Source: Candidatus Acidiferrales bacterium (GTDB taxonomy: Bacteria; Acidobacteriota; Terriglobia; Acidiferrales; UBA7541). Taken from it: a DNA stretch of 64,000 nucleotides. Under the pieces are notes generated by a model. The model was given only the letters and a program-made list of their open reading frames with translations, was not told the origin of the DNA and searched no databases. The position numbers and the translations under genes are program-made. Of the stretch, positions 23,457-38,623 are shown piece after piece; positions within the stretch are counted from its first letter, which is position 1, and every line of letters begins with the position of its first letter. The DNA lies in assembly GCA_049591475.1 (NCBI GenBank), contig JBAWEZ010000066.1, positions 99,790 to 163,789 on the forward strand, given 5' to 3'.

Positions 23457-23470
23457 AGAAAACGTTCTCT
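23457..23470. promoter_or_regulatory. 14-bp near-palindrome AGAAAACGTTCTCT just upstream of araD (candidate operator)
   Basis: Centred on CG, with 6 of 7 arm positions complementary. It sits about 28 nt upstream of ATG 23429 and has a LacI/GalR-like AACGTT core. Confidence 0.25.
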
Positions 23471-23594
23471 CAAAACCAGAGACTGCTCAACTCGGCGATG
23501 CCCCGAAGGGATTCGATTGCCTTTGCCCAGTCGGCCTAAGTGAGTGTCGCAGTCAATCCCTGCCGGATAAACTGATTTCCGAGCGACAGCCGAG

Positions 23595-23624
23595 ATTTTG
23601 AAGGACACTCAAACACTTTGTCAA
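23595..23624 (-). promoter_or_regulatory. sigma70-like promoter candidate for the araD operon
   Basis: The minus strand reads TTGACA (23624-23619), an 18-nt spacer, then CAAAAT (23600-23595). Pattern match only. It would give a ~160-nt leader containing the palindrome at 23457-23470. Confidence 0.25.
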
Positions 23625-24049
23625 CAATCGGCGTTCGTCCTCTGCGGAATTCATTCCCGGAACTGGCGAATGCTTCAGATTGAAATAGGGCTAGGAGCTG
23701 GACCGGAATCACGTTGACAGCGCCGGTATTCGAATTCAGAGTTTCGGGTAAGCTCGTCTGACTTCAGAAAAACCCCCACTCGATGAAGGCTCGCCCCCAA
23801 ACGGTACCGCATGCGCACCAGGTAGGAAAATTTCTTGGCCGCCGCGTACAGCGGATCGCTCCACCAGAGTCTCCGATGGAAATGAACCTGCATCTTATTC
23901 CGGGGGAACGAAGCGCTCGACTAGCGCGCGCCAGAAAGTCGACTGCCCACGTTGTAAGTTCGCTACCCCTATATCTGCTTTCCCCGGATCCTTTTGTCAT
24001 ACGAGCCGGCCAGGCTGAGCTGTCGAGGGCCTGGACGATATGTCTTCGG

Positions 24050-24280
24050 TCAAGAATTTCGAGGCCGATCGCGGGTGGGCGGAAAGCGAAGGCAGAAAAA
24101 AAGCCCGAGCACGGATAGAAGGCCGCCCCACCATATGCTCGCGTGCAAGTGGTAGAGCACGACGGGATGAGCCGGTGGATGCCCCAATTCATACAGGCCG
24201 GCGCCCAGAATCAGCACGCCATTGACCAGCAAGGATATGCCGATGAAAAACCAGATCGATATTGAGCCGCCTGTTTTCAT
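24050..24280 (-). CDS. small two-helix membrane protein (hypothetical), translationally linked to the SSS symporter
   Basis: 76 aa from ATG 24280 (MKTGGSISIWFFIGISLLVNGVLILGAGLY...IWWGGLLSVLGLFFCL). It starts 5 nt after the symporter stop. Two clear hydrophobic helices. No family recognised. Confidence 0.5.
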   Translation of the reverse strand: MKTGGSISIWFFIGISLLVNGVLILGAGLYELGHPPAHPVVLYHLHASIWWGGLLSVLGLFFCLRFPPTRDRPRNS

Positions 24281-24285
24281 TGTTC

Positions 24286-25983: not shown

Positions 25984-26374
25984 AGGGTCACCCCCGTCGG
26001 TTCAGGGACGTTCCAATTCGCGCTCATTTGCAATTTCCCAGAATGGCGCGGGCCAATCTTGTGGGACCGATAAGCGGTTTTAAACATGGCTCGGGATACT
26101 AGCATAGGAGGGACGCGTGAAGATCAGATCGTACTTTGCGGGCGAGGCTTCCAAACCGCATTTTTGTGGATTGCCCCATGTACGCAGAAGACCCGTCGAC
26201 TAGCACCCATCCCGAATTACAGTCCGCGGATCGTGTCGTGGCGAGTTGTTTGAGCTTGCCAAAGGAGGGTAAGACGCACTTCTCCGGAGAGGTCCTCTTT
26301 TGTCGGACAGAGAAGAAGATAAATTCCGCTGTGTCGAAAGCACGCTTTTCCCAGGCTCGTGACAGGTCTCGCAT

Positions 26375-27496
26375 TTATCGAACAGAAAACCTGAATTCCG
26401 TGACTTGGTGATAGCGCTGCCGGGGTTTCAATTCGGTGGTCGGAAACTTGGGATGATTGGGAGAATCCGGAAAACGTTGGGTCTCCAGGGCGAGAGCACC
26501 GCGGTGAACGTATACTTTCCCGTCCTTCCCCGTGATCGAACCATCCAGAAAATTGCCCGTGTAGACCTGAATCCCCGGCTGAGTGGTCCAAACGGTAAGA
26601 ACGCGTCCTGAGATTGGATCGTATACCTCGGCGGCCTCTCCGAACTGGCCCGCAGGCTTATCCAGCACCCAATTGTCGTCATATCCCTTGGAGTTGTGCA
26701 GTTGTTGGTTGTTCTCATTGATGCGTGAACCAATCACCGTTAACTTGCGGAAATCGAACGGTGTTCCCGCAACCGACTCCAAAACCCCCGTGGGAATCAG
26801 ATTGGCATTCACGGGAGTGAAACGCGAGGCGTTGATTTTCAGTTCATCGTGGAGGATGGTGCCGTTCCCTTGTCCGGAAAGGTTGAAATAGGAATGGTTA
26901 GTCAGGTTCACCACCGTGTCTTTGTCCGTGGTCGCCGTATAGTCGATGTGCAGCTTCTTTCCGATCAAAGTGTATTTGACGACAGCCGTCAGAGTGCCGG
27001 GGAATCCCTGGTCGCCGTTAGGACTTACGTGCGTCAGTTCGATGCCATCGGGAATAACCTTGGCCTTCCATACCACTTTGTCGAATCCGCGAGTACCCCC
27101 GTGGAGCGTATTCTCGCCATCGTTCTTGGGCAGAGTGTAAGTGTGGCCGTCGAGCTTGAACTCCCCGTGGGCAATCCGATTGGCATAACGCCCAATGAGC
27201 GCGCCGAAGTAAGGGCTCGGGTTGGCGATGTATTTGTCGACGGAGTCAAAACCCAGAACAACATCCGCGACTTTGCCTTTGCGGTCGGGGACCTTCAGCG
27301 ACTGGACAATGCCCCCATAGGTCATGATGCGCGCTTGGATGGTCCCATCCTTGAGCGTGTAGATCTCAACGGGCGTTCCATCCGCCAACTTGCCGAAAGG
27401 CTGCCTTGTCACTTGTGTCTGCGCCTCCAGATTCAACGGCAGCATTCCTAGAACCAGAATAATTGCAAGCCTTACCACCGCTTTTGTCCAATGCAT
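26375..27496 (-). CDS. galM: aldose 1-epimerase (galactose mutarotase), secreted form
   Basis: From ATG 27496 (GGAGGG RBS): MHWTKAVVRLAIILVLGMLPLNLEAQ signal peptide. Mutarotase segments NTLHGGTRGFDKVVW, VNLTNHSYFNLSG and ALALETQRFPDSPN. The 82-codon upstream extension of the ORF track was rejected. Confidence 0.88.
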   Translation of the reverse strand: MHWTKAVVRLAIILVLGMLPLNLEAQTQVTRQPFGKLADGTPVEIYTLKDGTIQARIMTYGGIVQSLKVPDRKGKVADVVLGFDSVDKYIANPSPYFGALIGRYANRIAHGEFKLDGHTYTLPKNDGENTLHGGTRGFDKVVWKAKVIPDGIELTHVSPNGDQGFPGTLTAVVKYTLIGKKLHIDYTATTDKDTVVNLTNHSYFNLSGQGNGTILHDELKINASRFTPVNANLIPTGVLESVAGTPFDFRKLTVIGSRINENNQQLHNSKGYDDNWVLDKPAGQFGEAAEVYDPISGRVLTVWTTQPGIQVYTGNFLDGSITGKDGKVYVHRGALALETQRFPDSPNHPKFPTTELKPRQRYHQVTEFRFSVR

Positions 27497-27831
27497 TTTT
27501 ATGGCCCTCCGTTTAATCTTCCATCGACTACCCAACTTGCAGCCCAGGAAGCGGGACGCAACCACCGAACGGGTCCCATTTTCTAAACCTTGTACAGAGG
27601 GGCCAGCAATTGCGCATAGCTGAAGGTGCTTGCTGAGGAGGCCTCGATAGCGAGGAAGCGCGTCTTGGAGACTTGCAGGACGATGCGAGCAAACGGCAGG
27701 AGTCGGCCGGCTCAACCATGTTGCCTCCTGTCCCGATAGCAAACACCAATTTCGAACAGTCTCATCTCTTAGCTCTTCATCATTGTAACGAAGATGTCAA
27801 CAGCGTCGCATTCTAGTCCGTAAATTCCAGT

Positions 27832-30800
27832 CTAGGGTTGTTCCGGGCGATAGTGAAAAAGATACGAACGAGGAGGAGCGCCCGAGACTTCGCGAGTGTT
27901 GTAATGCAAATAATATTCAACATGGCTGCGGTCGTAGGGATAGCCTGCGCCTTTCGGATACGGATAAGAAAGGAGGCTATGGATGGGCAACGGAGTAACC
28001 GTGGCCCCGAAAGCGGCATAAATATCCATGTCTTTGTCGAACCCATTCGCACAAAAGAAATAATCGCGCACCCATCCATGGGAAAGTTTGGGCAACAAGG
28101 AAGGGTCAAAACTCAACGCGACCTCGTCCCCCGAGCCAAAGATGGCGTATTTTTCATCAGCGTGGGTTAGAAGCGGGAGAACGTCGCCGTAGCGAGTATA
28201 GTTTCCTGACTGCTGCGCGTAGGGACCTGTTGCACTTATGTCGTCATAAACGTAGCTGAGATCGCCGCTCGTTTTGCCTTCGATGTAACGCGGATATCCC
28301 CGAAAATCGAGCTTAGCCTCCACGAGAGGGACGTTTATAACTCGATGCGGTACATCCAGAGGAGAATTATCAATGCGAATGCGGTCCCAATAGACTTTCA
28401 AGTTCGTAACGATGCGGATCCGACGCGTGCCTGCTGGCAGTTTTCCGGTGAGATCAACAACCATGCTGCGTTCCAGACCTGCGGGGAATCCCATGTCTTG
28501 AATCACACGGTGCCAACGGCCCGAGGAATCCTGAGCTTCCACAAAGGGCGGGATCGGCTTCATACCCGCTTGCCGAGCCGCATATAGGGAATCGGCACTG
28601 AAATAATCGGTGAAGCCGTCCATCAGCAGGCGCAGAGGACGATGCGGATTCCATTCCCCCAAATCTAGTTCGAGCCAGTGCATTTTCGCGAGGCCCGCGA
28701 AAGACAGGCCCTGAAAACCATCGACGAAGCGATGGTCGCGCACCAAAAGAACCGGGAGTTCATTCCGGCCATAATTGTCCCACGCACCGAGCGGAGGGTG
28801 CGCGCGACGGATGGCAATCACCTTGAATTGGGGGAAGGGCGGACGCATGGCAAAGTGCGAGTTCGAGTACACCTCCACACCTGCGGGATGATCCACCGCG
28901 ACGAGGCGGACTTGATCCAGATAGTCGAGTTCCTCCATCGGTTCGAGCAAACGAAAACTGAGCAGGCCCTTCCTCGGCTGAGCGTCCGAGCCTTGCACCT
29001 TCATATATTCTTCGGGATCGGGGATGTTGCGGCGCCTGGGTGCTATCCAGTGGCCGACGATACCCGCGCCGAGAATATCGTCGATGAACTTGAAATGATG
29101 TCCGTCCCAAGAGAACAGCAAGGGGCACGAACTGCCATGGCGGTCAAGTTCCTCGATGGCGGCATGCCCATCTACAGGGAAGTTAATTTCATCCTGAAGC
29201 ACTCCAGTCGGCCACAACATGCGGACAATATCCGCCTTTGTAGCCGAATCGAGTCCGACATCGAGGGATATGTCGCTCTGGCCCAGGTAACCGGAAGCCG
29301 CGCGAATTTCAAATTTCTGGCGCAGAGTACCAGCGAACACCTGGACTTTCGTGCCGATCGCGCTACGGTTGTCGACAAGACCGTGCAGCGTCAGTCGAAG
29401 CCAGTGATTGCGATTGGACTCCATGTTACGCAAAAGGACCGGCGGGCCGCCAGCTTGGGTGACGAGAAGATCGCTCGAACCATCACCGAAGAAATCGGCG
29501 GATACGAGCGAGCGCGGATGCGTGAGGCGAATTTGGTCGAGGCCAACATCCTGAGAGACATTGCGAAATCCTGCAGCACCTTCATTGCGCAGCAAAACGA
29601 TGTGGCCGCCGGATGAATTTGTCCCCACGGCGGCAATGTCAATCCAGCCATCGTGGTCATAGTCGAGCGTTACGAGCCCCCAGCCCCGACCCCAGCCAAG
29701 TTCAGGCAGCAATACGGCCGTGAACTTCTTACCGTCGACATTGCGCCAAAGGGAAATCCCAGGCGTGCGGGAATGCGTGAACGCCAAATCCATCCATCCG
29801 TCCTTGTTAAAATCGAAAGCGACGACGCCGACCGCCGGGGAAGTCATCGCGGGCTCCCAAGGCACTGCCGCCCGGAATGCGCCTTCGCGTGGATTGAAGT
29901 AAATGGCCGGCGGACGATGCATCGAGGCCACCACGAAATCCACAGCGCGATCATTGTTGATGTCGCTCGCCGTTGCGCCCCAGCTTCCGCCCGGATTCGC
30001 CAAACCCGTTTCGCGGGTCACATTGGTAAACGCCCCGTTACCGTTGTTGCGCCAAAGCTCGTTGGACGATGGGCCCGCTAATGAAGGGGACGAATTTGAA
30101 CCGCGTGAGACATACAGATCCAGGTCGCCGTCCTGGTCGTAGTCAACAAAGGTGAGGCCCAGTGGGACGCCCGTAACGTTGATACCGGATTCTGAAGTGA
30201 CATTCTTGAACGTTCCATCGCCCTCGTTTTGAAACAGTGCCACTCCTCCGCGATAGCTGACCGCCAACCCAGGGTGGCCGTCGTTGTCGAAGTCCCCGGC
30301 AGTGCAGCCAATCGCAGGCCCCGGGAGATCGATGCCGGACTGGGAGATAACGTTCGCGAATTGTCCATCGCCGAGATTGTGATAGAGCGCCGCATGGCCC
30401 GTGCCATCGTTACCGAGAAAGATATCCGGCTTGCCGTCGCCGTCGTAATCGAAGACGCAAGCCCCGGAACCGAAATCTTCTGCTGGGTCCCGCGACTTCG
30501 CCGGGCGAGTCGCCCATCGAGACGGCAGACCCGATTGGGCAGTCACATCGACGAAATGTACTTGGCTTTGAGCAGGAACCGGCTCGATGCCCGGGGACAT
30601 TTTCTCCGCAAGAGAATATTTTCCTTGGTCGCCGTAGGTGAGACTCATCGGCTTGCCGAGTTTCGTCTCGGTCAAGTGCTGGAAACGAATGAGTTGCCCT
30701 CGGGCTTGTTCGGGATGGCCCGAACGCTCATATGCCTGCGCCAACGCGAACTCCGAAGACGCGTGGAAGGGATCGAGGTGCAGGGCGCGTTCGAAAGCGG

Positions 30801-31299
30801 CAATCGCTTTCCCATACTGATTTAGGCTGAGGTAATCCTGGCCAAGAAAATACTGCGTGTCCGCATCCTGCGGATCCAGCGCGGTGACTCTCTCAAAATT
30901 CTGCACGGATATCTGGGTATGGCCAAGGGATCTTTCGATGAGTCCGAGGTTATACCAGGTGCGGGGATTCCTGGGCTCACGCACTGCCGCTTCTTCGAGA
31001 ATTGCGAGAGCCGGGGGAAACCTCTCCAAATTCAGCAGCGCGATGGCTTGATTGAGGCGTGCGGCGTAAAGGGCAGGATCGAGAGAATAGGCCTTCTCAA
31101 ACTCGGAGAGAGCGTTCCGCTCGTCTTGTCGATTCATGTACGCAATGCCGAGGTTGTTATGCGCAATCGCTTCCTGCTTTGCCTGTGCGTTTGAATTCGC
31201 AGGACGTTGCGAAACGAACCGATCGTTAAAAAATGGAACGGAACAGGCGAGCACCACAAGGGCGGTAAAGAAAGTCGCGCGATGTGGGATTCGCGTCAT
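27832..31299 (-). CDS. large TPR + FG-GAP/VCBS + UnbV/ASPIC (CRTAC1-family) protein with ~450-aa unassigned C-terminal extension
   Basis: 1155-aa ORF with an N-terminal signal/anchor (MTRIPHRATFFTALVVLACS). About 6 TPRs, then VCBS-like repeats (DYDGDGKPDIFLGN...ALYHNLGDGQFANV), then NHWLRLTLHGLVDNRSAIGTKVQV (UnbV/ASPIC). After that comes a long region starting ...GSSCPLLFSWDGHHFKFIDDILG that has no motif I recognise. Starts 9 nt after the preceding gene's stop. Confidence 0.85.
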   Translation of the reverse strand: MTRIPHRATFFTALVVLACSVPFFNDRFVSQRPANSNAQAKQEAIAHNNLGIAYMNRQDERNALSEFEKAYSLDPALYAARLNQAIALLNLERFPPALAILEEAAVREPRNPRTWYNLGLIERSLGHTQISVQNFERVTALDPQDADTQYFLGQDYLSLNQYGKAIAAFERALHLDPFHASSEFALAQAYERSGHPEQARGQLIRFQHLTETKLGKPMSLTYGDQGKYSLAEKMSPGIEPVPAQSQVHFVDVTAQSGLPSRWATRPAKSRDPAEDFGSGACVFDYDGDGKPDIFLGNDGTGHAALYHNLGDGQFANVISQSGIDLPGPAIGCTAGDFDNDGHPGLAVSYRGGVALFQNEGDGTFKNVTSESGINVTGVPLGLTFVDYDQDGDLDLYVSRGSNSSPSLAGPSSNELWRNNGNGAFTNVTRETGLANPGGSWGATASDINNDRAVDFVVASMHRPPAIYFNPREGAFRAAVPWEPAMTSPAVGVVAFDFNKDGWMDLAFTHSRTPGISLWRNVDGKKFTAVLLPELGWGRGWGLVTLDYDHDGWIDIAAVGTNSSGGHIVLLRNEGAAGFRNVSQDVGLDQIRLTHPRSLVSADFFGDGSSDLLVTQAGGPPVLLRNMESNRNHWLRLTLHGLVDNRSAIGTKVQVFAGTLRQKFEIRAASGYLGQSDISLDVGLDSATKADIVRMLWPTGVLQDEINFPVDGHAAIEELDRHGSSCPLLFSWDGHHFKFIDDILGAGIVGHWIAPRRRNIPDPEEYMKVQGSDAQPRKGLLSFRLLEPMEELDYLDQVRLVAVDHPAGVEVYSNSHFAMRPPFPQFKVIAIRRAHPPLGAWDNYGRNELPVLLVRDHRFVDGFQGLSFAGLAKMHWLELDLGEWNPHRPLRLLMDGFTDYFSADSLYAARQAGMKPIPPFVEAQDSSGRWHRVIQDMGFPAGLERSMVVDLTGKLPAGTRRIRIVTNLKVYWDRIRIDNSPLDVPHRVINVPLVEAKLDFRGYPRYIEGKTSGDLSYVYDDISATGPYAQQSGNYTRYGDVLPLLTHADEKYAIFGSGDEVALSFDPSLLPKLSHGWVRDYFFCANGFDKDMDIYAAFGATVTPLPIHSLLSYPYPKGAGYPYDRSHVEYYLHYNTREVSGAPPRSYLFHYRPEQP

Positions 31300-31308
31300 G
31301 AGCTTTCG

Positions 31309-33018
31309 TTAGTCCTTCTCGTAGGGTCTCGCGGAGATGATTCCCCGGCCTTCCTGGACTGTAATCATTTGTCCGGCGGAGACATTCTTCAAATGGTCCA
31401 CGCGGCCGCTGGGCCAATCAATTTCGATTGCCGTAGCCTCCGTATTGCGGGCAAGGCCGAACGTAAGAACCAGCTCGCTCGAAGAAAGATAGCTGGAGCC
31501 GCTCTTCAGCATTTTCCACTCCGTTGAGCCGCCCGAAGTGACCTTCACCACCGCGCCGATTCCGTCGCGATTCGATTTCGCGCCGACCAGCTTGATGCGC
31601 AAGCTGCGATTCGTGCCCCCCGTGTTGCGGAAAAGAACGGCAGGGCCGCTGTTAGTCGAGATCAAGATGTCCAGTTTGCCGTCATTGTATACATCCCCAT
31701 AGGCGGCGCCGCGAGCGACGCGCGGCGTGTTAAATGCGGTCCCCATTCGGGATGTCACGTCGGCGAATTTTCCCCCACCGAGATTGCGGAACAGCAGCGG
31801 CGGTTCCGCATAGTGAACTTGCGGCTGCACTTTTTGGATATCCTGCTGGATGTGACCGTTGGCAACGAAGATATCGGGCCAGCCGTCGTTATTGTAATCG
31901 AAGAAGAAGCAGCCGAAGCCTAGAGTGAGTAGGCTCGCGTGACCGACTTCCGACTCTGGCGCTTCGTCCACGAACAGACCGTTGCCTTCGTTGTGATAAA
32001 GCGAGAGCATCTGATTCGAAAAGTTCGAAATTAAGATACTTGGATAACCAGAACGGTCGTAATCGGCGGAGTCCGTACCCATGCCGGCGCGGGCTTCCCC
32101 ATTTTCACTAAAGCCGACGCCAGAAACGACCCCTGTATTTCTGAAGCTTCCATTGCGATTGTTGATGTAAAGCTTATTCGGTTCCGTATCATTGCTGACG
32201 AAAATGTCTGGCCAGCCGTCCCGGTTCGCATCGAGGATGGAGATCCCCAGGCTTTTCGCCGTAGGATCGTAGAGTCCCGCTTTTTTTGTCACATCGGTGA
32301 ACGTGCCGTTGCCGTTGTTGTGCCAGAGGCGTAATGACGCACCCTTATAGGCAACGGGGGTGCAATACGACTTCGTTTTGCCGTCGATAGTGCAGTAAAT
32401 ATCGGTCTGGGGCGACCATTCAACGTAATTTGCTACGACTAAATCCAAGTATCCGTCACGGTCGTAATCTACCCATGCCGCTCCCGTGCTGAAATCTTTT
32501 GGCCCCCAGAGACCGGCGTGCTTGGTCACATCCGTGAATGTGCCATTGCAATTGTTGCGAAAGAGATGATTCTGGCCGAGGGCCGTGACGAAAATATCGT
32601 CGCAGCCGTCGTTGTTGTAATCTCCGATGGCTACACCCATGCCGTACATTTCCACATCCAGGCCAGCCTGCTTGGTCACATCGGTGAACGTGCCGTTGTG
32701 ATTGTTGCGGTAGAGAGCCATGTAGGTGTGGTGGCGAACGTGGCCCGGCCAGTCTTGCCCGTTGATCAAGAGAATGTCTTGCCAGCCGTCCCGGTTGTAA
32801 TCGAGAAATGCCACCCCAGAGCCTATGGCCTCGGGCAACCATTCCTTTCCAAACGCGCCATTATTGTGAATGAAATGAATGCCAGCGGCCCGCGTGACGT
32901 CCTGAAACGTGATTAGTTCCGAGGCCGGTCCCTTCTGCGCGTCTAAGGTGGCGGAAAAGAGAATCAGGAAGCAAGCCGAAAGCACCAGCGGAAATTTACG
33001 TCGAGAAGGATAGTTCAT
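31309..33018 (-). CDS. CRTAC1-family protein (FG-GAP/VCBS repeats + UnbV/ASPIC domain), secreted or lipoprotein
   Basis: From ATG 33018: MNYPSRRKFPLVLSACFLILFSATLDAQ. Repeats ...DYNRDGWQDILLING...LYRNNHNGTFTDVT...; C-terminal NRSLRIKLVGAKSNRDGIGAVVKV...SGSSYLSSSE. Its ATG overlaps the TAA of the upstream cytochrome gene (TAATG, 33016-33020). Confidence 0.85.
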   Translation of the reverse strand: MNYPSRRKFPLVLSACFLILFSATLDAQKGPASELITFQDVTRAAGIHFIHNNGAFGKEWLPEAIGSGVAFLDYNRDGWQDILLINGQDWPGHVRHHTYMALYRNNHNGTFTDVTKQAGLDVEMYGMGVAIGDYNNDGCDDIFVTALGQNHLFRNNCNGTFTDVTKHAGLWGPKDFSTGAAWVDYDRDGYLDLVVANYVEWSPQTDIYCTIDGKTKSYCTPVAYKGASLRLWHNNGNGTFTDVTKKAGLYDPTAKSLGISILDANRDGWPDIFVSNDTEPNKLYINNRNGSFRNTGVVSGVGFSENGEARAGMGTDSADYDRSGYPSILISNFSNQMLSLYHNEGNGLFVDEAPESEVGHASLLTLGFGCFFFDYNNDGWPDIFVANGHIQQDIQKVQPQVHYAEPPLLFRNLGGGKFADVTSRMGTAFNTPRVARGAAYGDVYNDGKLDILISTNSGPAVLFRNTGGTNRSLRIKLVGAKSNRDGIGAVVKVTSGGSTEWKMLKSGSSYLSSSELVLTFGLARNTEATAIEIDWPSGRVDHLKNVSAGQMITVQEGRGIISARPYEKD

Positions 33019-35882
33019 TAACGAAAGCCTTTCGACTCTGCTGGGTCGCCGGCACGATAGGCAGTAGGCGTCGGCGCGCCGGATGCGATTTCGTGGATGG
33101 GCTGGCGCTCGTTGTTCTCGTCCGGATGGGAGCGGAGATAAGGGCCCGTCAGCGAACCTTCCGCTTCGTTTGCCTTGAAGCGCAAATAGCGAATTTCGAA
33201 CCGGCGAGCCTGATCGGGTTTCCCCATTCCGGTATAACAAAGCATGAGGTTGTAGTTGGCCTCCACATCCTCCGGATCGATCGCGATTACTTTTTTGAAT
33301 TCACCGATGGCTTCGGCATACCGACGCTTGAGAAAGTAGGCGCGGCCGAGACTATTCCGCACCACGCGGTCCGTGGGATATTGCTTGAGGGCAGTCTTAT
33401 ACTGGGCGATGGCCGGGTTATAATGGCCCTGATCGCGCAGCACTTGGCCGTAAAAAAAGTGAGCACTGGCCAGCGAAGGTGCAACCTTCAGCGCGCGCAG
33501 AAGAACTTTTTCCGCCGCTGGCAGGTTCCCTTCTTGGAGCCTTGCGCGCGCCATGTTCACCCAGCCGTCCGGCCGACTCGGCGCGGCCTGCGCGACTTTG
33601 GCAAACGCGGCGTCCGCACCCTGCAAATCCCCCTGAAGCAGCAAGCCAATTCCGTAGTCATTCCAGCGTCCCCAGTCCGCAGGTAGTACGTCAAGGTGAG
33701 GCTTCGGCTCCGGCGCGCTGGCGGGCAAAACTTCTAACTGTGCTTTGTCGTCCGCCATGACAACAATGGGAAGGTTCGGAATGCCGGGCCGTTTGCCAGA
33801 ATCATCCTTTGTGCTGCCCGTGAAAACCCAGTTGGTGTCGTCGTAGCTGGGCGAAACGGCAGGATTGTGCTGGCTGGGATCATGCGCCCCGGCGAAAGCG
33901 AACTGGGTGAACCACCAGTCAAATTTGCGATAGTTCAGCTTTGCCGTGAGCGTGATGCGATTGCCGGCATCCTTCGGGATAGACAGGCGGTAGTGAACCG
34001 TATCGGCGGCGCCAGGAGGGATCAGCTTGACATAAATGACGGCGCGCTCGGCCCAGGCATTGCGCTTGTTAATCGGGTTCCCGTGGGCATCCACGAGTAA
34101 CGCGCGATAGAACTGCGCGCTGGGGTCCACGGGACCGTCGTTGCTCCTGCCTTTTGGGCCTTCCGGTCTCCCACTCCAAAAAATCACGTGACCTTTGCTA
34201 TCGGTGGCCTTGAGCTCGAGCCACAAGTCGAAGGCATCGACCGTTCCGCCCGGGAAGAAGTGGCCTACCCCGCGCGTCCGGACAACGACATCGACCCGGA
34301 TCGTGTCACCGCGCCGAACCTGCACGGGGAACCGCCCAAATGGGGCCGTCAGTTCCGTCGCCGGGGTCGCAAATTGCTGAACGCCTCGCGGAGCCACGAA
34401 CTCCGATTCTTCACCGACGGCGAATGCTGTCTGGATCTGCGGCTCTGTGCCCGGCCGCGGACCAGGCGGGGTCACTGCTTTCACGCTGGAAGTTGGGTGT
34501 TCGGGAGAAATCCCGAAAATGTCTACGCTAACCTTATCCGTCTTTAGGAAATTCTCGACGGTCTCGAGTTGCTTGGTATCCTCGTTTTCGTACGGCAATG
34601 CGGTATTCGCTGCGGGAAAACGGTGCGAATGAACGAAGCCGTGATCATTGCCGAAATCATGTGAATGCACTTTCGGCATGTGGCAATCCGTGCAAACTTC
34701 TGGATGTTCGGGATAGTAAAAGGAGCGGGCGCCCAAGCCAGAGACTCCGCTCGCCTGCCAGTTGTCATAATCGTCGAAACCACGCACCCAGCGATAATGA
34801 TTGACCGGCAAATCGAGATGTACCTTGTGGCAGACCGAACAGAATTGGGCGGTCTGATTTTTTACGAAAGGTTTCATGAAAACGCGGCGGTGCGGTTCCG
34901 GGTTGAGCTTAATAAGATAATCGACAAGGCCGCGCATGACTGGGTTCTTGCTTGTCGCCAGATCGTTCAAATGAGGATATTCGAGCACGTAATCATTCTG
35001 GCCCATGGTGGACTGCACCCGCACGATCGAATGGCACATAATGCAGCCGAGGCCGGCCTGGCCTTCCGGCGTGTTCTCGATTTCGCGGACCGGCCGGTCA
35101 AACATTCCGGTCAAAAGCAGCGCAGGGTCGTGGCAACCCGCACACCATTTCGACGGGCGAATGCCGACTGTGTCCTGCATGTATTCAATACTCTTCCGAT
35201 ACCACTGATTATTGAACGTTGAAAAGTGGTGCGCGGAACTCTCCCATTGGCGATAAATGTCAGCATGGCAAGGCTGGCAAGTTTTCGAGTCCAGAAAATA
35301 CTGTTTGGGGATTTTCGCGTTGTTAGCGACTTCCGCGGAGGCCGGAAAAAATGGGCTCGAAGCTCCGCCGCCCTCGTCATTCATGCTCGCAGGGGCGATT
35401 TTGGGATTCAGTATTTTGTAGTCGTCCTGCCAGGGAATGGTTCGCAGCCACCATGCGCCGTAACTGAGACCCGCAAACAGAAGAACGACGACGCCCCAGC
35501 GCAGCGCGCCACCAAAGGATACGGATCTTAGCCAACCTTTGCGCGCTGCCCAACTACCCAGAAGCAGCACAATTCCAACGACGCACAGGGCAATGTGCGC
35601 ATAGAGCAGCGGAAAATCATTGCGTTGTGCGCCGACGAACCCCAAGACAACACCAAGAAATCCGCCTAAAACAAGCGAACTCCATCCGGCAAGGTCAGCG
35701 CGGCCATGCGTGTCCCATTGTCTTTTGACAAGAAGAAAAAGCAATAGGCCAAGAAAAACGAGGCCGGCGGCCAAATGCAGCGCAACCAGAACGTAGTAGT
35801 AGACGGCCGCAGTGGGCCAGGAATAGACGATGGCCGCCGTGAAGAACAGCAAGTGCAGAAGACCGATTTTGAGTCGAGTCAT
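33018..35882 (-). CDS. membrane-anchored pentahaem c-type cytochrome fused to C-terminal TPR repeats
   Basis: 954-aa ORF. About five N-terminal hydrophobic helices. Five CXXCH motifs (CQPCH, CAGCH, CIMCH, CSVCH, CTDCH) in a cytochrome c554/NrfA-like spacing. An unassigned middle region, then C-terminal TPRs (AKVAQAAPSRPDGWVNMARARLQEGNLPAAEKVLLRALKVAPS...). Confidence 0.85.
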   Translation of the reverse strand: MTRLKIGLLHLLFFTAAIVYSWPTAAVYYYVLVALHLAAGLVFLGLLLFLLVKRQWDTHGRADLAGWSSLVLGGFLGVVLGFVGAQRNDFPLLYAHIALCVVGIVLLLGSWAARKGWLRSVSFGGALRWGVVVLLFAGLSYGAWWLRTIPWQDDYKILNPKIAPASMNDEGGGASSPFFPASAEVANNAKIPKQYFLDSKTCQPCHADIYRQWESSAHHFSTFNNQWYRKSIEYMQDTVGIRPSKWCAGCHDPALLLTGMFDRPVREIENTPEGQAGLGCIMCHSIVRVQSTMGQNDYVLEYPHLNDLATSKNPVMRGLVDYLIKLNPEPHRRVFMKPFVKNQTAQFCSVCHKVHLDLPVNHYRWVRGFDDYDNWQASGVSGLGARSFYYPEHPEVCTDCHMPKVHSHDFGNDHGFVHSHRFPAANTALPYENEDTKQLETVENFLKTDKVSVDIFGISPEHPTSSVKAVTPPGPRPGTEPQIQTAFAVGEESEFVAPRGVQQFATPATELTAPFGRFPVQVRRGDTIRVDVVVRTRGVGHFFPGGTVDAFDLWLELKATDSKGHVIFWSGRPEGPKGRSNDGPVDPSAQFYRALLVDAHGNPINKRNAWAERAVIYVKLIPPGAADTVHYRLSIPKDAGNRITLTAKLNYRKFDWWFTQFAFAGAHDPSQHNPAVSPSYDDTNWVFTGSTKDDSGKRPGIPNLPIVVMADDKAQLEVLPASAPEPKPHLDVLPADWGRWNDYGIGLLLQGDLQGADAAFAKVAQAAPSRPDGWVNMARARLQEGNLPAAEKVLLRALKVAPSLASAHFFYGQVLRDQGHYNPAIAQYKTALKQYPTDRVVRNSLGRAYFLKRRYAEAIGEFKKVIAIDPEDVEANYNLMLCYTGMGKPDQARRFEIRYLRFKANEAEGSLTGPYLRSHPDENNERQPIHEIASGAPTPTAYRAGDPAESKGFR

Positions 35883-35954
35883 TCGACGCCCGAGGTGCAG
35901 AAATAGCTAAAGAACCGCGCCTGAAAACCCTGAACTCCCCCGCTTTTGCACGGG

Positions 35955-35983
35955 ATTCTCCTGCCGGGAATTTCAGAAGTCAA
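35955..35983 (-). promoter_or_regulatory. sigma70-like promoter candidate for the cytochrome/CRTAC1 operon
   Basis: The minus strand reads TTGACT (35983-35978), a 17-nt spacer, then GAGAAT (35960-35955), about 70 nt upstream of ATG 35882. Pattern match only. Confidence 0.3.
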
Positions 35984-36070: not shown

Positions 36071-37510
36071 ATGCAAGACCGGGCCAAACCTCAAAAAAAA
36101 AACCTGACATCCCTGACCCTCAGCGAAATGGTGGCGGGAATCCGTCAGAAAACGGTTTCGCCCCTGGATTTAGTCGAGGCGCATCTCGATCAAATAACGC
36201 GCCTCAATCCACAGCTGAATGCCTTCGTGTATGTGGACGAGGAGGCGGCGCGGCGTCAAGCGAGAGCCGCGGAATCCGCCATCTTGCGGGGAGAAGCGCT
36301 TGGACCACTCTACGGAGTTCCGCTCTCGATCAAGAGCTCGATCGATGTGGCCGGTTGGCCGATATGGTGTGGATCCAAACTGCGCAAGCATTGTGTGGCG
36401 GTCGAGGACGCGCCGCTCGTTTCACGTTTGCGCCGTGCAGGGGCAATTTTACTGGGCAATACGAACGCTCCGGAATTTTTGATGGCCTACGAGACCGATA
36501 ACGTGGTCACGGGCAGGACAAACAATCCCTGGAATTTGAGCCGCACACCCGGCGGGTCGAGCGGGGGAGAAGCTGCGGCGATTGCGGCGCACTGTTCAGC
36601 CGGCGGGGTGGGCAGCGACGGAGGAGGATCGATTCGCGTCCCGGCGCATTACAGCGGAATCTGTGGGCTCAAGCCGACGCCTGGACGAATTCCGGCCACG
36701 GGTCATTTCCCAGCCTCAGCGGGCCCCTTCGCGCTCCTCGGAGTAGTTGGCCCGTTGGCGCGGACCGTGGGGGATCTAAGCGTGCTGTTTGAAATAATGA
36801 TGGGTCCAGACTGCGGCGATTCGTTCTCCGCCCCGATCCCTATGCGTCAGCCCGCGCAAACTGAAATTCTGAAATTGCGGATCGGATTTTTCGAGGAAGA
36901 CGGTCGCACACCCGTGACCGCCGAGACCCGAGCGGCAGTCCGAAAGGCGATTTCGGCGTTAGTAAACGCGGGAATGACGGTCGAGCCATTTCTACCCGAA
37001 GGATTGGAAGAAGCGCGCAGAATTTGGTGGAATTTTTTCGGCCGGGCGGGTGAGTTTGTCCTGGGTCCTATGGTCGCGGGCCAAGAGGCGGACCTGAGCC
37101 CGCTATTCGCTGAATTCCTAGGGAATGTGCGGAAAGAGCCGAAGCTTACGCTAAATGAACTCATGAATACCATGCTCGAACGCGATGCCTTGCGTCCGAA
37201 GTTTCTTCGCCAGATGGAGAAATATCCGGTGTTGATTTGTCCGGTTTGCTCCGTGCCTGCCTTCCGTCATGGCGAGCGCGTGTGGGATGTGGGCGAGCGT
37301 AAAGTCGATTACTTTCAAGCTATGAGCTATTGTCAGTGGTTCAACGCGCTGGGGAATCCGGCGGCTGTCGTGCCCGTGGGGCGTTCGCCAGAAGGGTTGC
37401 CGATCGGCGTGCAGGTAGTTGGCCGGCCCTACGAAGAAGAAATTGTCTTGGCGGTAGCACGAATCATAGAAGAGACCTCCGGAAATTCGTGCGATCCACC
37501 GCTGTTGTAA
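36071..37510 (+). CDS. amidase (amidase-signature family)
   Basis: 479-aa ORF with a GGAGGAA RBS. AS-family core GVPLSIKSSIDVAG...GGSSGGEAAAIAA...GSDGGGSIRVPA (Ser-cisSer-Lys context). Confidence 0.88.
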   Translation: MQDRAKPQKKNLTSLTLSEMVAGIRQKTVSPLDLVEAHLDQITRLNPQLNAFVYVDEEAARRQARAAESAILRGEALGPLYGVPLSIKSSIDVAGWPIWCGSKLRKHCVAVEDAPLVSRLRRAGAILLGNTNAPEFLMAYETDNVVTGRTNNPWNLSRTPGGSSGGEAAAIAAHCSAGGVGSDGGGSIRVPAHYSGICGLKPTPGRIPATGHFPASAGPFALLGVVGPLARTVGDLSVLFEIMMGPDCGDSFSAPIPMRQPAQTEILKLRIGFFEEDGRTPVTAETRAAVRKAISALVNAGMTVEPFLPEGLEEARRIWWNFFGRAGEFVLGPMVAGQEADLSPLFAEFLGNVRKEPKLTLNELMNTMLERDALRPKFLRQMEKYPVLICPVCSVPAFRHGERVWDVGERKVDYFQAMSYCQWFNALGNPAAVVPVGRSPEGLPIGVQVVGRPYEEEIVLAVARIIEETSGNSCDPPLL

Positions 37511-37573
37511 CCGGGCTTTCCTGGAGCAAGCGGCGGCGTTCGCCGGCTATACCGCAGGTGAGAGGTACGCGCT

Positions 37574-38617
37574 ATGCGTCGCGTTCAAGCTGACAAGTCC
37601 GGCGAGTGCATCCTAATCACCGGAGCTGGCGGCTACGTCGGGTCCGCGCTCGCCAAAGCGATAGCCTCTGCCAATCCCCTGCACCTTATCGTGCTGGATC
37701 ATTCAGAGCAGGGCATTCATGAACTCCTGCACGCACTTGGCGATATCGAAACCCGCGTCCATCCAGTGATTGGCGATATCGCTGATTCGGCCTTGTTAAA
37801 CGAGATTTTCGAAGAGCATCGCCCCGACGTGGTTTATCACGCGGCGGCGTACAAGCACGTCCCCCTGATGGAGCAGAACCCCTTTGCAGTGGTTCGAAAC
37901 AATGCGATCGGTACTGCAATTCTCGCCAAAACGGCCGTGCAATATCAGGTCGCCAAGCTCGTCATGATTTCCACAGATAAGGCCGTCACCCCCCGAAGCG
38001 TCATGGGTGCTTCAAAGCGTGTAACCGAGCTCATGTTGCTTCGCTGGACCAACGGAGTCAGCCGGATGAGTGCGATCCGATGCGGAAATGTGCTCGGCTC
38101 TACCGGCAGCGTATTGCCCCTTTTTCATCGGCAGTTATCTCAGGGCCTGCGTTTAACCGTGACCGATCCTGAAGCAAGCAGGTATTTTTTTTCGCTGGAA
38201 GACACCGTTGCGCTGATTCTCGCCGCAAGCGAGCGCGACGAAAGTGGATCTATTTTTGTTCCCGAAGCGGGAGCACCGACCAAGATCCTGGAACTGGCGC
38301 GACACCTTTTGGGCGAGTTGGGACGCCACGATGATGCCGAGGGTAGCGCCATTCATTTCACTGGTCTCCGCCCAGGAGAGAAGCTTACGGAGGAATTCAC
38401 GTTCGAATATGAACGCACCGAACCGGTCGGGAACAACCTTCGCCGAGTAACAAGTCCCCTTGTGCTAGCCGACAACTTCGATGCCACGGTAGAGGAGCTT
38501 GAAGAGGCCGTGGCGCGCCGGGATCTTGGACGCCTTCTCGAACTGCTTCGGTACCATGTGCCGGAATATCGACCGAGCGAACTGCTGCTTCGTGCAGTGG
38601 CCGGCTCGGCCGTGTGA
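37574..38617 (+). CDS. CapD/PglF-type nucleotide-sugar 4,6-dehydratase (Polysacc_synt_2 family, short form)
   Basis: ILITGAGGYVGSALA (Rossmann), VYHAAAYKHVPLMEQNPFAVVRNNAIGT, ISTDKAVTPRSVMGASKR, RCGNVLGSTGSVLPLF, GLRPGEKLTEE. Confidence 0.82.
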   Translation: MRRVQADKSGECILITGAGGYVGSALAKAIASANPLHLIVLDHSEQGIHELLHALGDIETRVHPVIGDIADSALLNEIFEEHRPDVVYHAAAYKHVPLMEQNPFAVVRNNAIGTAILAKTAVQYQVAKLVMISTDKAVTPRSVMGASKRVTELMLLRWTNGVSRMSAIRCGNVLGSTGSVLPLFHRQLSQGLRLTVTDPEASRYFFSLEDTVALILAASERDESGSIFVPEAGAPTKILELARHLLGELGRHDDAEGSAIHFTGLRPGEKLTEEFTFEYERTEPVGNNLRRVTSPLVLADNFDATVEELEEAVARRDLGRLLELLRYHVPEYRPSELLLRAVAGSAV

Positions 38618-38623
38618 ACAATC

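Follow-up and report, generated by a model that had tools for sequence, protein, structure and literature searches.

We know of no biochemical role for CRTAC1 proteins in either bacteria or humans; CRTAC1 and integrin-type FG-GAP propellers are classically calcium-dependent binding modules. Hydrazine-synthase-like haem proteins are encoded next to a CRTAC1 gene in Planctomycetota, Paludibaculum, and Syntrophobacter (PMC12758564), which we count as an independent precedent for pairing a haem protein with CRTAC1. Among described cytochromes, the pentahaem c552 of T. tepidum and MccSep of Geobacter are both built as a five-haem cap plus an Ig-like stem (bioRxiv 10.1101/2025.11.18.688581). In the window (the whole 64,000-nt stretch of DNA analyzed, from a Candidatus Acidiferrales bacterium), the gene of a five-haem cytochrome stands directly ahead of CRTAC1 genes, as it does in hundreds of bacteria from soils and the sea. 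We found no prior description of this cytochrome-CRTAC1 cassette in the searchable literature, and the pairing gives the CRTAC1 family its first consistent partner. The cassette comprises the following features:

35955-35983, minus strand: promoter-like TTGACT-17-GAGAAT upstream of gene 1 (sequence match)
33018-35882, minus strand: gene 1, membrane-anchored pentahaem cytochrome c with a TPR tail, 954 aa (ORF and translation, Pfam)
35418-35882, minus strand: gene 1 aa 1-155, five predicted transmembrane helices with His36 and His96 (AF2 model, alignments)
34593-35297, minus strand: gene 1 aa 196-430, five-haem domain (motifs at C202, C247, C280, C348, and C397)
33723-34550, minus strand: gene 1 aa 445-720, predicted beta-sandwich (Ig-like) stem (AF2 strands, profile match)
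33153-33665, minus strand: gene 1 aa 740-910, periplasmic TPR domain (Pfam TPR families, AF2)
31309-33018, minus strand: gene 2, secreted CRTAC1-family protein, 569 aa from the ATG in TAATG (ORF, Pfam)
27832-31299, minus strand: gene 3, secreted TPR, CRTAC1 propeller, UnbV_ASPIC, and C-terminal all-beta protein, 1155 aa (Pfam)
27832-29166, minus strand: gene 3 aa 712-1155 (~440 aa), predicted tandem beta-sandwich or jelly-roll (AF2)

Genes 1 to 3 are co-directional on the minus strand (27832-35882) and look like one tightly coupled unit: the gene 1 stop and gene 2 start overlap as TAATG at 33016-33020, and a 9-nt gap separates the TAA of gene 2 (31309-31311) from the ATG of gene 3 (31299). An earlier sequence-only reading had placed the three ORFs and both junctions at these coordinates, which hold, and had considered a single coupled unit very likely, a view in line with the conserved cytochrome-to-CRTAC1 order in relatives. 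It had also asked whether the two genes stay adjacent elsewhere. Of 76 related Terriglobia loci, 74 have a CRTAC1 gene immediately after the cytochrome gene. All six of the Gammaproteobacteria loci that we examined, with a cytochrome ~30% identical, show this order too, and the pairing is far beyond chance. In 8 of 9 gene-called loci, the two genes overlap by at most 11 nt or lie at most 12 nt apart. Gene 3 was found in 37 of 56 fully flanked loci, as well as in Gammaproteobacteria at ~30% identity. When all ORFs of 88 loci and the window were clustered all-vs-all, the only widely shared families were the cytochrome, CRTAC1, and an amidase. The proposed promoter-like element is present upstream of gene 1, but such sites are not enriched (2 found vs 6.1 expected in shuffles). 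It is kept in L089, the closest relative (cytochrome 93% identical), where the entire spacer is 91% identical, making its conservation there uninformative.

The database annotation of gene 1 is 'tetratricopeptide repeat protein' only. The protein has at least 7985 homologues, and those with E<=1e-30 form 723 clusters at 50% identity. Its translation carries CQPCH, CAGCH, CIMCH, CSVCH, and CTDCH, which hold 10 of its 12 cysteines, and Pfam recognizes Cytochrome_C554 at aa 201-285 (31.7 bits, cut-off 20.8) and TPRs at aa 745-900. The hydrophobic N-terminal helices, previously read as about five, number five in the AF2 model (residues 2-21, 27-52, 61-83, 87-114, and 124-155). The positive-inside rule predicts an N-in, C-out topology; the N-terminus is 5 residues long and the loops are short. 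The TPR domain, modeled at a pLDDT of 80-94 and matched to TPR proteins by Foldseek, is our proposed docking site for CRTAC1. A multihaem periplasmic domain on a polytopic membrane anchor could also suit a periplasmic redox or oxygen sensor signaling via the membrane domain, and a redox sensor had been suggested earlier. Yet so short an N-terminus and such loops leave no cytoplasmic output domain, Pfam showed no kinase, GGDEF, MCP, or HTH domain, and the ORF clustering across 88 loci and the window revealed no regulator gene conserved nearby, so that we consider a sensor highly improbable.

The five CXXCH motifs are invariant among 35 orthologues and in the cross-phylum alignment, as the sequence-only reading would have them kept; across the 84-sequence family alignment, the haem 1 motif is CXXCH in 53 and CX4CH in 31. 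Candidate distal ligands are H218, H331, H355, and H420 in the haem domain and H541 in the stem. Four of these (H218, H331, H420, and H541) are conserved at 100% in the family alignments, and H355 at >=90% in the alignment of Acidobacteriota and Gammaproteobacteria. This gives one distal candidate per haem, and all five c-haems are probably bis-His in the gene 1 subfamily, with the haem-ligand pairs read as candidates at a mean AF2 pLDDT of 57.8 for the haem domain. By contrast, just 52% of the whole family have His at position 355, and many members have Ser, Gly, or Asn there. In some relatives, one haem may therefore be open and catalytic, and a picture of the haem chain as wire only may not extend to the whole family. 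For gene 1, the predicted topology and the five conserved distal-His candidates fit the extracytoplasmic electron-transfer role that had been proposed for it.

The periplasmic profile of gene 1 matches both pentahaem c552 (5ZE8, E=1.3e-7) and MccSep (E=6.5e-4), which makes the periplasmic core of the protein distantly homologous to the pentahaem-plus-Ig-like class. The region that the sequence-only reading could not assign gave no match in Pfam, but the profile comparison places it, as an Ig-like stem, in the c552/MccSep fold class; its beta strands come from an AF2 model of low confidence. Within the stem, the invariant loop G540-H541-x-F-x-x-G546-T547 aligns with the Sec loop of MccSep (GHSIPDG[U]P). 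This alignment, and a fold class in common with the polysulfide reductase MccSep, could mean that the cytochrome is itself an enzyme like MccSep, NrfA, or OTR, whose substrate, a small inorganic or organic molecule, would react at haem 2 by the Ig-domain loop; the CRTAC1 proteins would then assist as scaffolds or carry the substrate. Residues 361-391, a highly conserved stretch specific to the family and located between haems 4 and 5, would suit such a role, as would the count of just four non-motif His that are universal family-wide for five haems. Still, in the window's subfamily and in Gammaproteobacteria, H355 brings the distal candidates to five for five haems, and the catalytic equipment of MccSep is missing: its Sec/Cys is replaced by Thr at position 547 (Thr in 64 of 84 sequences), and the family has no conserved non-motif Cys to match its haem-ligating Cys. 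Alignment did not place the counterpart of MccSep C239. We consider an enzymatic cytochrome unlikely.

Two further histidines lie in the membrane domain of gene 1. H36 (TM2) and H96 (TM4) are invariant in the 35-orthologue and cross-phylum alignments and conserved at 93-96% family-wide, each ~9 residues into its helix counted from the periplasmic side; this suggests a candidate b-haem near the periplasmic face. In 55-57% of the family, Gammaproteobacteria homologues included, these two helices bear another His pair, 18 and 14 residues beyond the first; it is missing from the window's gene 1. Two His pairs on two membrane helices are the classic di-haem-b pattern. Pfam matches of the membrane region were far below threshold (Ni_hydr_CYTB at E=7e-4, DUF4405, and PepSY_TM), some homologues carry the JGI labels cytochrome b561 or FdnI, and a PDB sequence search for the domain returned no match.

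Among the partner proteins, Pfam agrees with what had been read from sequence: FG-GAP_3 and UnbV_ASPIC in both gene 2 and gene 3, with N-terminal TPRs added to the propeller of gene 3 and no match in its C-terminal region. Gene 2 has seven FG-GAP/VCBS calcium-binding repeats plus UnbV_ASPIC, and the gene 3 propeller matches human CRTAC1 (9ETN, E=3.6e-7). The C-terminal domain of gene 3 has 1488 homologues, and the Pfam domains among the matches listed were FG-GAP and/or UnbV_ASPIC. Its AF2 model is all beta (mean pLDDT 74.6), with weak Foldseek matches to APC10/Doc1, discoidin, and CBM22/16/11 only. No redox cofactor motif is visible in the CRTAC1 proteins, where only two invariant His (H51 and H389) stand out amid many calcium-binding Asp and Asn. 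A further pair lies elsewhere in the window:

9661-11502, plus strand: third CRTAC1 paralogue (Pfam), with a Tat-like SRREWMK signal if the start is at 9766
11538-12686, minus strand: secreted TPR protein, 382 aa, paired with the third paralogue (Pfam TPR families), with a signal-like sequence at its N-terminus

The third paralogue adjoins a TonB-type receptor, as previously described for 9766-11502. An equivalent CRTAC1 and TPR gene pair sits in the cassette cluster of L089 and of the Gammaproteobacteria loci L083-L085 and L087, and a separate TPR gene lies beside CRTAC1 in L083-L088 as it does in the window. TPRs thus occur as fusions with the cytochrome (gene 1) or with CRTAC1 (gene 3) and also as separate genes, a Rosetta-stone pattern that we count in favor of TPR docking.

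The mechanism that we tentatively favor, at somewhat short of an even chance, is electron exchange between a b/c-type cytochrome linked to quinol and CRTAC1 partners docked through TPRs. The architecture of gene 1 is that described above, and onto it we infer the cofactors and electron flow. In this inner-membrane cytochrome, His36 and His96 of the five-helix anchor would bind a single b-type haem near the periplasmic face, and this haem would feed a periplasmic chain of five c-type haems. This chain would rest on the Ig-like stem, the same build as in T. tepidum c552 and MccSep, followed by the C-terminal TPR arm. The arm would dock the co-translated gene 2 propeller, to which gene 1 is linked genetically, and possibly gene 3, which would bring its own TPR and C-terminal beta-sandwich domain. 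Electrons would then pass between the quinone pool of the membrane and a target in the periplasm that the calcium-binding propellers either bind or act on. That no redox cofactor motif is visible in the CRTAC1 proteins weighs against this reading.

The sequence-only reading had instead placed the cassette in plant-polymer (arabinoxylan, lignocellulose) or humic processing, as a redox-assisted step tied to glycoside hydrolases and galM-SSS. Its neighbors in the window are indeed GH51, GH127, GH3, galM, an SSS transporter, FGGY kinases, and an AraD-like aldolase; L089 also keeps GH127 and GH51 beside the cassette, and the C-terminal domain of gene 3 has a weak fold similarity to carbohydrate-binding modules. 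However, the CBM-like Foldseek matches have TM-scores <=0.4 and poor E-values, and the genomic context is not conserved. Neither galM nor SSS adjoins the cassette in any of 82 related Terriglobia loci, weak GH127 matches, 26-28% identical, appear in just 2 of 85 loci, and the 10-kb flanks of the six marine Gammaproteobacteria loci contain no glycoside hydrolases. In L089 itself, gene 3 and the third CRTAC1 paralogue have no galM, SSS, and TonB block between them, indicating that the window's arrangement is a local rearrangement. The plant-polymer idea is thus unsupported by context, and we regard it as quite unlikely.

Other neighbors form a divergent operon (36071-40947), in which three sugar genes are co-directional with the amidase:

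36071-37510, plus strand: amidase-signature amidase, divergent, no signal peptide (Pfam Amidase; NCBIfam matches all below cut-off)
37574-38617, plus strand: PseB/FnlA-like 4,6-dehydratase (Pfam; NCBIfam below cut-off)
38624-39814, plus strand: NeuC-type hydrolysing UDP-GlcNAc 2-epimerase (Pfam; TIGR03568, 421 bits vs 235.9 cut-off)
39811-40947, plus strand: PseC/LegC-like aminotransferase (Pfam; NCBIfam below cut-off)

Of 56 fully flanked loci, 32 contain the amidase gene in one orientation or the other, and gene 3 accompanies it in 30 of these 32; Gammaproteobacteria have a non-homologous CN_hydrolase in its place. Of 83 Terriglobia loci examined besides the window, only 2 have the sugar trio at most 10 kb away: it adjoins the cassette in L089 and sits between genes 2 and 3 in L034. 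Part of it also occurs in the Gammaproteobacteria loci L083-L085 and L087. The cytoplasmic amide hydrolase and the trio belong to the wider functional unit by co-location only.

Recurrence of this trio with the cassette could point to envelope or matrix assembly, in which a modified amino sugar made by these neighboring genes goes into a structure of TPR and CRTAC1 proteins, located in the periplasm or on the cell surface and either adhesive or associated with exopolysaccharide, and the cytochrome gives electrons only for maturation or cross-linking or is a structural anchor. The best NCBIfam matches of the TPR proteins, all below cut-off, are assembly factors of the PrsT, PilW, Tgl, and BcsC type, PEP-CTERM proteins adjoin the minimal locus L086, and the calcium-dependent binding generally known for FG-GAP propellers would suit adhesion. 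Yet the trio comes without the NeuB-type synthase and CMP-transferase needed for the nonulosonic acid route, and the clustering of 88 loci and the window showed no conserved glycosyltransferase, polymerase, flippase, or export porin nearby. Five invariant haem sites and conserved membrane His would also be a heavy cost for a mere anchor, and an assembly role therefore seems to us improbable.

Separately, the recurrent set exceeds the boundaries drawn by the sequence-only reading, from which the amidase, dehydratase, NeuC-like, and aminotransferase operon and the distant, separate TPR and CRTAC1 pair were absent; both also recur with the cassette, and the NeuC-type epimerase is 52-58% identical across phyla.

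The sequence-only reading had proposed a three-gene minus-strand operon, and its open reading frames have exactly the coordinates claimed. The features discussed here are as follows.

33018-35882, minus strand: gene 1, a 954-aa cytochrome with C-terminal tetratricopeptide repeats (TPRs)
31309-33018, minus strand: gene 2, a 569-aa protein of the CRTAC1 family (FG-GAP/VCBS propeller plus UnbV/ASPIC)
27832-31299, minus strand: gene 3, a 1155-aa TPR-CRTAC1 protein
36071-37510, plus strand: amidase
37574-40947, plus strand: sugar trio, in the order PseB/FnlA-like dehydratase, NeuC-type hydrolysing UDP-GlcNAc 2-epimerase, PseC/LegC-like aminotransferase
9661-11502, plus strand: third CRTAC1 paralogue (probable start 9766)
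11538-12686, minus strand: 382-aa TPR protein paired with the third paralogue

Both junctions of the operon were also seen in the sequence: the stop codon of gene 1 overlaps the start codon of gene 2 as TAATG, and gene 3 starts 9 nt after gene 2 stops. The promoter-like element TTGACT-17-GAGAAT does exist, but it carries no weight because such sites were rarer in our scan (2) than in shuffled sequence (6.1). It was therefore dropped as evidence, being not above chance and uninformative in its conservation. Rfam scans of the window and the 5' region returned zero matches.

The linkage between the cytochrome and CRTAC1 is real and old. A word-index search gave at least 7985 candidate homologues of gene 1, an exhaustive search of 50%-identity representatives resolved the family into 723 clusters at 50% identity (E<=1e-30), and at least 596 stretches of GTDB species-representative genomes matched. 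All of the 80 best loci came from Terriglobia-type Acidobacteriota. In 74 of the 76 sufficiently flanked loci, a CRTAC1 gene with at least 50% identity to gene 2 begins on the same strand no more than 1.3 kb past the cytochrome gene. Through a distant representative and its relatives we reached Gammaproteobacteria homologues (~30% identity to gene 1) at six loci, namely the isolates Pseudoalteromonas spongiae, Aliikangiella and Pseudomarimonas, a Glaciecola MAG, a 3.5-Mb single-record genome labelled MAG Pseudomonadota, and one metagenome contig. CRTAC1 lies immediately downstream of the cytochrome in all six, so that the synteny spans phyla, and in 8 of 9 gene-called loci the two genes overlap by up to 11 nt or stand up to 12 nt apart. 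When all ORFs from 88 loci plus the window were clustered against each other, only the cytochrome (87), CRTAC1 (79) and the amidase (36, under a strict coverage filter) were widely shared.

Database entries name these cytochromes "tetratricopeptide repeat protein", "TadD" or "PilF", and the haem domain is generally overlooked. A large cytochrome family is thus concealed under such labels by annotation pipelines, and metabolic reconstructions of Acidobacteriota leave out this electron-transfer module. Six loci (L023, L029, L036, L038, L060 and L072) carry Terriglobia-type cassettes of cytochrome and CRTAC1 genes (52-57% identity to gene 1) under the labels Limnocylindrales, Saccharimonadales, Dormiibacterota, Binatia and Verrucomicrobiia. 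These are probably mis-binned or mis-classified MAGs, and we therefore left them out of the evidence for phyletic range. At another locus on a 4.5-Mb contig (L001 12754-18003), the equivalents of genes 2 and 3 are split into pieces of 247, 130, 182, 176 and 572 aa, which may be assembly frameshift errors rather than true pseudogenes.

The domain architecture of gene 1 comprises a hydrophobic N-terminus, a five-haem core and a Pfam TPR block at aa 745-900. The five CXXCH motifs (C202, C247, C280, C348 and C397) hold 10 of its 12 cysteines and are invariant across orthologue alignments, while haem 1 varies in the wider family, where 31 of 84 members have CX4CH (CGxxGCH) rather than CXXCH. Cytochrome_C554 scored above its Pfam threshold. 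A profile of the periplasmic part (aa 160-735), built from Acidobacteriota and Gammaproteobacteria sequences and run against the PDB, revealed remote homology to the Thermochromatium tepidum pentahaem cytochrome c552 (5ZE8, E=1.3e-7, over haems 1-3) and to the Geobacter polysulfide reductase MccSep (E=6.5e-4). A single-sequence PDB search with gene 1 was swamped by TPR matches. The AF2 model of full gene 1, built from a 35-sequence alignment, was poor in the haem domain (mean pLDDT 57.8), and Foldseek with this model returned TPR proteins only, with no fold-level assignment of the cytochrome core. In its secondary structure, helices run until ~aa 447 and are followed by low-confidence strands at 451-719. 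In c552 and MccSep alike, a helical cap with five haems sits on a stem formed by an Ig-like beta-sandwich (bioRxiv 10.1101/2025.11.18.688581). This cap-plus-stem build fits the helices then strands of gene 1 and would account for the region that had earlier resisted assignment; HMMER aligns a gene 1 loop to the Ig domain of MccSep as a weak domain match.

Gene 1 also departs from both relatives. Like c552, it places five c-type haems in an alpha-helical cap ahead of a predicted Ig-like beta-sandwich, and it has CHMP at haem 5. However, c552 is a 435-residue chain without the membrane anchor and TPRs that gene 1 has, its haems 4 and 5 are spaced by 31 residues rather than 49, and the stretch between haems 3 and 5 could not be aligned. 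The T. tepidum protein is reportedly water-soluble, and we know of no function assigned to it. With MccSep, gene 1 shares the cap, the predicted stem and the five CXXCH motifs. MccSep/ExtKL (a multihaem cytochrome c selenoprotein, PDB 9WT8/9WT9) is a soluble homotetramer whose activity requires Sec325 and the haem-ligating Cys239, the distal ligand of haem 2 (bioRxiv 10.1101/2025.11.18.688581). An invariant gene 1 loop, G540-H541-F-F-P-G-G546-T547, aligns with MccSep GHSIPDG[U]P, the loop that bears its catalytic selenocysteine, and position 547 in 84 family sequences is Thr in 64, Lys in 12 and another residue in 8, with no Cys or stop codon. The same alignment has no conserved Cys beyond the haem motifs. 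Lacking both Sec/Cys at the D-G-U-P loop and a conserved extra Cys, gene 1 is therefore not an MccSep-family enzyme. It also adds a membrane domain and TPRs. Searches with the fragment aa 335-466 and a profile of aa 270-440 gave nothing useful, and an equivalent of MccSep C239 could not be aligned. Distribution differs as well: MccSep occurs in Desulfobacterota and Nitrospirota, whereas gene 1 extends the c552/MccSep fold class to Terriglobia and marine Gammaproteobacteria, lineages known in culture as aerobes.

Four histidines outside the haem motifs, H218, H331, H420 and H541, are 100% conserved in the 84-sequence family alignment. A fifth, H355, follows the haem-4 His by three residues; it is kept as His in 52% of sequences family-wide and in at least 90% of those in the window's subfamily and the Gammaproteobacteria. 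The window locus thus offers five candidate distal ligands for five haems, which favors a pure electron-transfer chain. Some gene 1 relatives may, judging from their alignment, have one open haem. We consider it improbable that the cytochrome itself is catalytic.

Five hydrophobic helices form the N-terminus of gene 1 in the AF2 secondary structure (aa 2-21, 27-52, 61-83, 87-114 and 124-155). Positively charged segments read from the translation (MTRLK, KRQWDTHGR and ARKGWLR) fall on alternate loops, so the topology is N-in/C-out with the remainder of the protein periplasmic. His36 in TM2 and His96 in TM4 are 93-96% conserved, each ~9 residues short of the helix's periplasmic end. In 55-57% of the family, Gammaproteobacteria included, these two helices carry a further His pair, +18 and +14 residues along; it is absent from the window protein, whose subfamily has lost it. 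Two-by-bis-His is the textbook pattern of a di-haem cytochrome b, and for the window protein we infer one candidate b-haem. On a di-haem cytochrome b domain of the Ni_hydr_CYTB/FdnI type, Pfam gave sub-threshold matches only (E=7e-4 to 2.8, 8-15 bits against a 30-bit cut-off); the three families matched, Ni_hydr_CYTB, PepSY_TM and DUF4405, are all membrane families with b-haem. A profile of the TM domain found no homologue in the PDB.

Geobacter CbcL exemplifies a quinol-linked b-type anchor fused to a periplasmic multihaem c domain, and ImcH, NrfH and NapC are functionally comparable. Gene 1 similarly combines a polytopic membrane anchor, in which His residues are conserved, with a multihaem c domain in the periplasm, an arrangement that suits a link between the quinone pool and redox partners there. 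It differs in having no significant match to Ni_hydr_CYTB/FdnI or NapC/NirT, in the single His pair kept by the window protein, and in its TPR tail and CRTAC1 partner, which have no counterpart in CbcL-type systems. By function, b/c fusion quinol oxidoreductases such as CbcL appear to be its nearest analogues, without detectable homology. The cassette does not fit an extracellular porin-cytochrome conduit of the MtrCAB or Pcc type, whose outer-membrane beta-barrel and surface multihaem cytochrome are co-encoded: no porin or second cytochrome family is conserved across the 88 loci and the window, and the MtrC/MtrF domain match in gene 1 is sub-threshold (25.6 vs 30 bits).

The partner proteins belong to the CRTAC1 family. 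FG-GAP_3 matched gene 2, gene 3 and the third paralogue at E=5e-51, 2e-44 and 5e-53, and UnbV_ASPIC (PF07593) matched them at 62.9, 39.2 and 64.9 bits against a 23.4-bit cut-off. Seven DxNxDGxxD-type calcium-binding repeats are visible in the gene 2 translation. Across 68 cytochrome-coupled orthologues of gene 2, just two His are invariant, and no residue pattern suggests a binding site for copper, PQQ or haem. Gene 3 aa 276-701 matches residues 25-483 of human CRTAC1 (9ETN_A, E=3.6e-7), with which it shares the FG-GAP/VCBS calcium-binding beta-propeller and UnbV/ASPIC. The bacterial genes differ in being coupled to a cytochrome gene, and gene 3 further adds N-terminal TPRs and a 440-aa C-terminal region without a Pfam match. 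Vertebrate CRTAC1 has a C-terminal EGF-like region that the bacterial proteins do not, and Pfam found no EGF domain in genes 2 and 3. The C-terminal domain of gene 3 has 1488 homologues, and any Pfam domain on the matches listed was FG-GAP and/or UnbV_ASPIC. It is ~30% identical in Gammaproteobacteria and is predicted to be all-beta (mean pLDDT 74.6), with Foldseek resemblance to jelly-roll, CBM and Doc1 structures (TM-score <=0.4) that is too weak to assign a function.

TPRs come fused to the cytochrome, fused to CRTAC1, or encoded by a neighboring gene, and this Rosetta-stone pattern suggests contact between TPR and CRTAC1. Matches to PF23914 (CcmH/CycH TPR) in gene 3 (48.3 bits vs a 42-bit cut-off) and the 382-aa TPR protein (63.1 bits) were taken to be generic TPR cross-matches and not evidence of a role in cytochrome maturation. 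We likewise dropped a Tat signal on gene 2 (SRRKF; RR motif in 1 of 77 orthologues) and gene 3 as a lipoprotein (lipobox in 4 of 49 orthologues, the Pseudoalteromonas protein having one). The third paralogue has a twin-arginine-like signal, PRFSRREWMKAAASAGAALAAG, and a similar paralogue upstream of the cytochrome at L052 (8029-9702) has NRRDFLISALGAG; from these motifs, some CRTAC1 proteins may be exported folded, via Tat.

We class the system as a redox module of periplasmic haem c and propeller, built on a membrane cytochrome. Propellers paired with c-type haems that pass electrons into or out of the respiratory chain are familiar from quinohaemoprotein amine dehydrogenase, PQQ quinohaemoprotein alcohol dehydrogenases and cytochrome cd1, whose cofactors are CTQ, PQQ and haem d1. 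By contrast, CRTAC1 has no homology to these enzymes and no recognisable cofactor site here. A CRTAC1 gene also lies between hydrazine-synthase-like alpha and beta-gamma genes in Planctomycetota, Paludibaculum fermentans and Syntrophobacter (PMC12758564). There too a CRTAC1-family gene sits amid genes for periplasmic c-type haem and propeller proteins, an independent hint that CRTAC1 propellers work with such haem proteins. That system is itself uncharacterised, has no TPR or membrane anchor, and its haem proteins are unrelated to gene 1 (one or two haems, propeller- or peroxidase-like folds). It was the sole related item in the literature searched, where no description of a cytochrome-TPR/CRTAC1 pairing appeared. 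Our preferred reading, to which we give slightly less than an even chance, is that a b/c-type cytochrome of the inner membrane connects the quinone pool with CRTAC1 propellers that are docked on TPRs in the periplasm. The membrane part of gene 1, with its candidate b-haem, would couple to quinone, the propellers would dock on the TPRs, and electrons would pass in either direction between the cytochrome and CRTAC1 or a ligand of CRTAC1.

The functional unit is larger than the three genes first proposed. Among 56 Terriglobia loci (9 kb on both sides), a gene-3-type long CRTAC1 is present in 37 and the amidase in 32, on the same strand in 27 and divergent in 5; gene 3 accompanies it in 30 of the 32. 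In Gammaproteobacteria, a non-homologous CN-hydrolase (best matches formamidase and aliphatic amidase) replaces this amidase-signature enzyme, and both are without a signal peptide. That two unrelated amide hydrolases occupy this position points to a functional link and not to gene order kept by descent. The window pair 9661-12686 also has a counterpart inside the Gammaproteobacteria clusters, and at L089, the closest relative (cytochrome 93% identical), it lies ~3 kb from gene 3.

The window amidase is the first gene of a closely spaced co-directional run that continues into the sugar trio, with gaps of 63 and 6 nt and then a 4-nt overlap. The epimerase is of the NeuC/LegG type (TIGR03568, 421.2 bits vs a 235.9-bit cut-off), whereas the best matches of the dehydratase (PseB, 154 vs 408 bits) and the aminotransferase (PseC, 312 vs 424 bits) fall below cut-off. 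All four genes adjoin the cassette at L089, the trio lies between genes 2 and 3 at L034, and parts of it occur in 4 of 6 Gammaproteobacteria loci, with the epimerase 52-58% identical across phyla, exceeding the cytochrome. An envelope or matrix assembly system with the cytochrome as an accessory is a reading that would build on this trio. Of a nonulosonic-acid (legionaminic or pseudaminic) pathway, the NeuB-type synthase and the CMP-sugar synthetase are absent from the scanned window ORFs, L034 and L089. We give the assembly reading a small chance.

A different partner appears at 16 Terriglobia loci (L013, L014, L016, L018-L020, L021, L022, L023, L029, L031, L033, L036, L046, L052 and L073), which have no amidase in the fetched flanks and no gene-3-type long CRTAC1. 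Between their cytochrome and CRTAC1 genes is a gene for an AhpD-like "peroxidase-related enzyme" (TIGR01926, 106.6 bits vs an 81.8-bit cut-off), for example at

L013 12915-13481: AhpD-like gene
L021 12891-13472: AhpD-like gene

In each of the 16, a TGA stands in frame where the AhpD-like CxxC would have its second Cys (C-[HF]-Y-*-I-[EV]-S-H), and past it conserved coding sequence runs on in frame. A hairpin, ACGCAGAGUUUCUGCGU, lies 11 nt downstream of the TGA; its folding energy is no better than that of shuffled sequence (z = -0.03). The gene is probably a selenoprotein, cut into two ORFs by ordinary ORF calling. It marks a second operon variant, in which a thiol/peroxide-type redox enzyme is tied to the same cytochrome-CRTAC1 pair.

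A bolder version of the preferred reading, possible but on balance unlikely, is that cytochrome-TPR and CRTAC1 form an unrecognised class of quinone-linked periplasmic oxidoreductase. Its CRTAC1 propeller would bind or convert the substrate, and the cytoplasmic amidase/CN-hydrolase or, in the second operon variant, the putative AhpD-like selenoprotein would process the product. CRTAC1/ASPIC-UnbV proteins abound in soil Acidobacteriota and also occur in marine Gammaproteobacteria. To our knowledge, no biochemical function is known for them, the human orthologue included. If such a class exists, bacterial genetics would give the family, including the human cartilage protein, its first biochemical activity. 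More generally, CRTAC1 function becomes a testable redox hypothesis now that the family has a partner kept from phylum to phylum, namely a b/c-type cytochrome of the membrane with a putative b-haem, and P. spongiae, Aliikangiella and Pseudomarimonas are cultured carriers.

Plant-polymer or humic processing had been suggested from the surroundings of the cassette. GH127 and GH51 do stay beside it at L089. Across the wider sample, galM and SSS were absent from 82 of 82 Terriglobia loci (the set before L089), and GH127 gave weak matches in 2 of 85 loci and nowhere else among them; we regard this reading as very improbable. A redox sensor, also raised earlier, would make use of the same haem protein, and near the cassette no regulator, porin or transporter is conserved in the 88 loci and the window; we hold it to be highly improbable.

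At L089 (12194-20313), GH51 comes straight after gene 3, and then the third CRTAC1 paralogue with its TPR gene. Within the window (7656-27742) a block of this type is inverted and ~15 kb away from gene 3, the interval holding a TonB-type receptor, LacI regulator, TPR protein, FGGY kinase, aldolase, SSS transporter and galM; the two layouts differ by a local rearrangement or insertion. Three window regions (1082-9392, 16962-27742 and 41049-48079) encode two GH3 enzymes, a GH35/42-like enzyme, a GH51 alpha-L-arabinofuranosidase, a GH127 beta-L-arabinofuranosidase, two FGGY kinases, a class II aldolase (AraD-like), aldose 1-epimerase, SSS transporter, LacI regulator, TonB-type receptor and esterase, and are probably an arabinan/L-arabinose utilisation region. 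An FHA-domain protein, a PP2C phosphatase and a Ser/Thr protein kinase at 50539-54260 on the minus strand are unrelated to the cassette. Upstream of the amidase at L002 (1-9769), two inosine-uridine nucleoside hydrolases, a TonB-type receptor and a ureide permease hint, at this one locus, at nitrogen scavenging.
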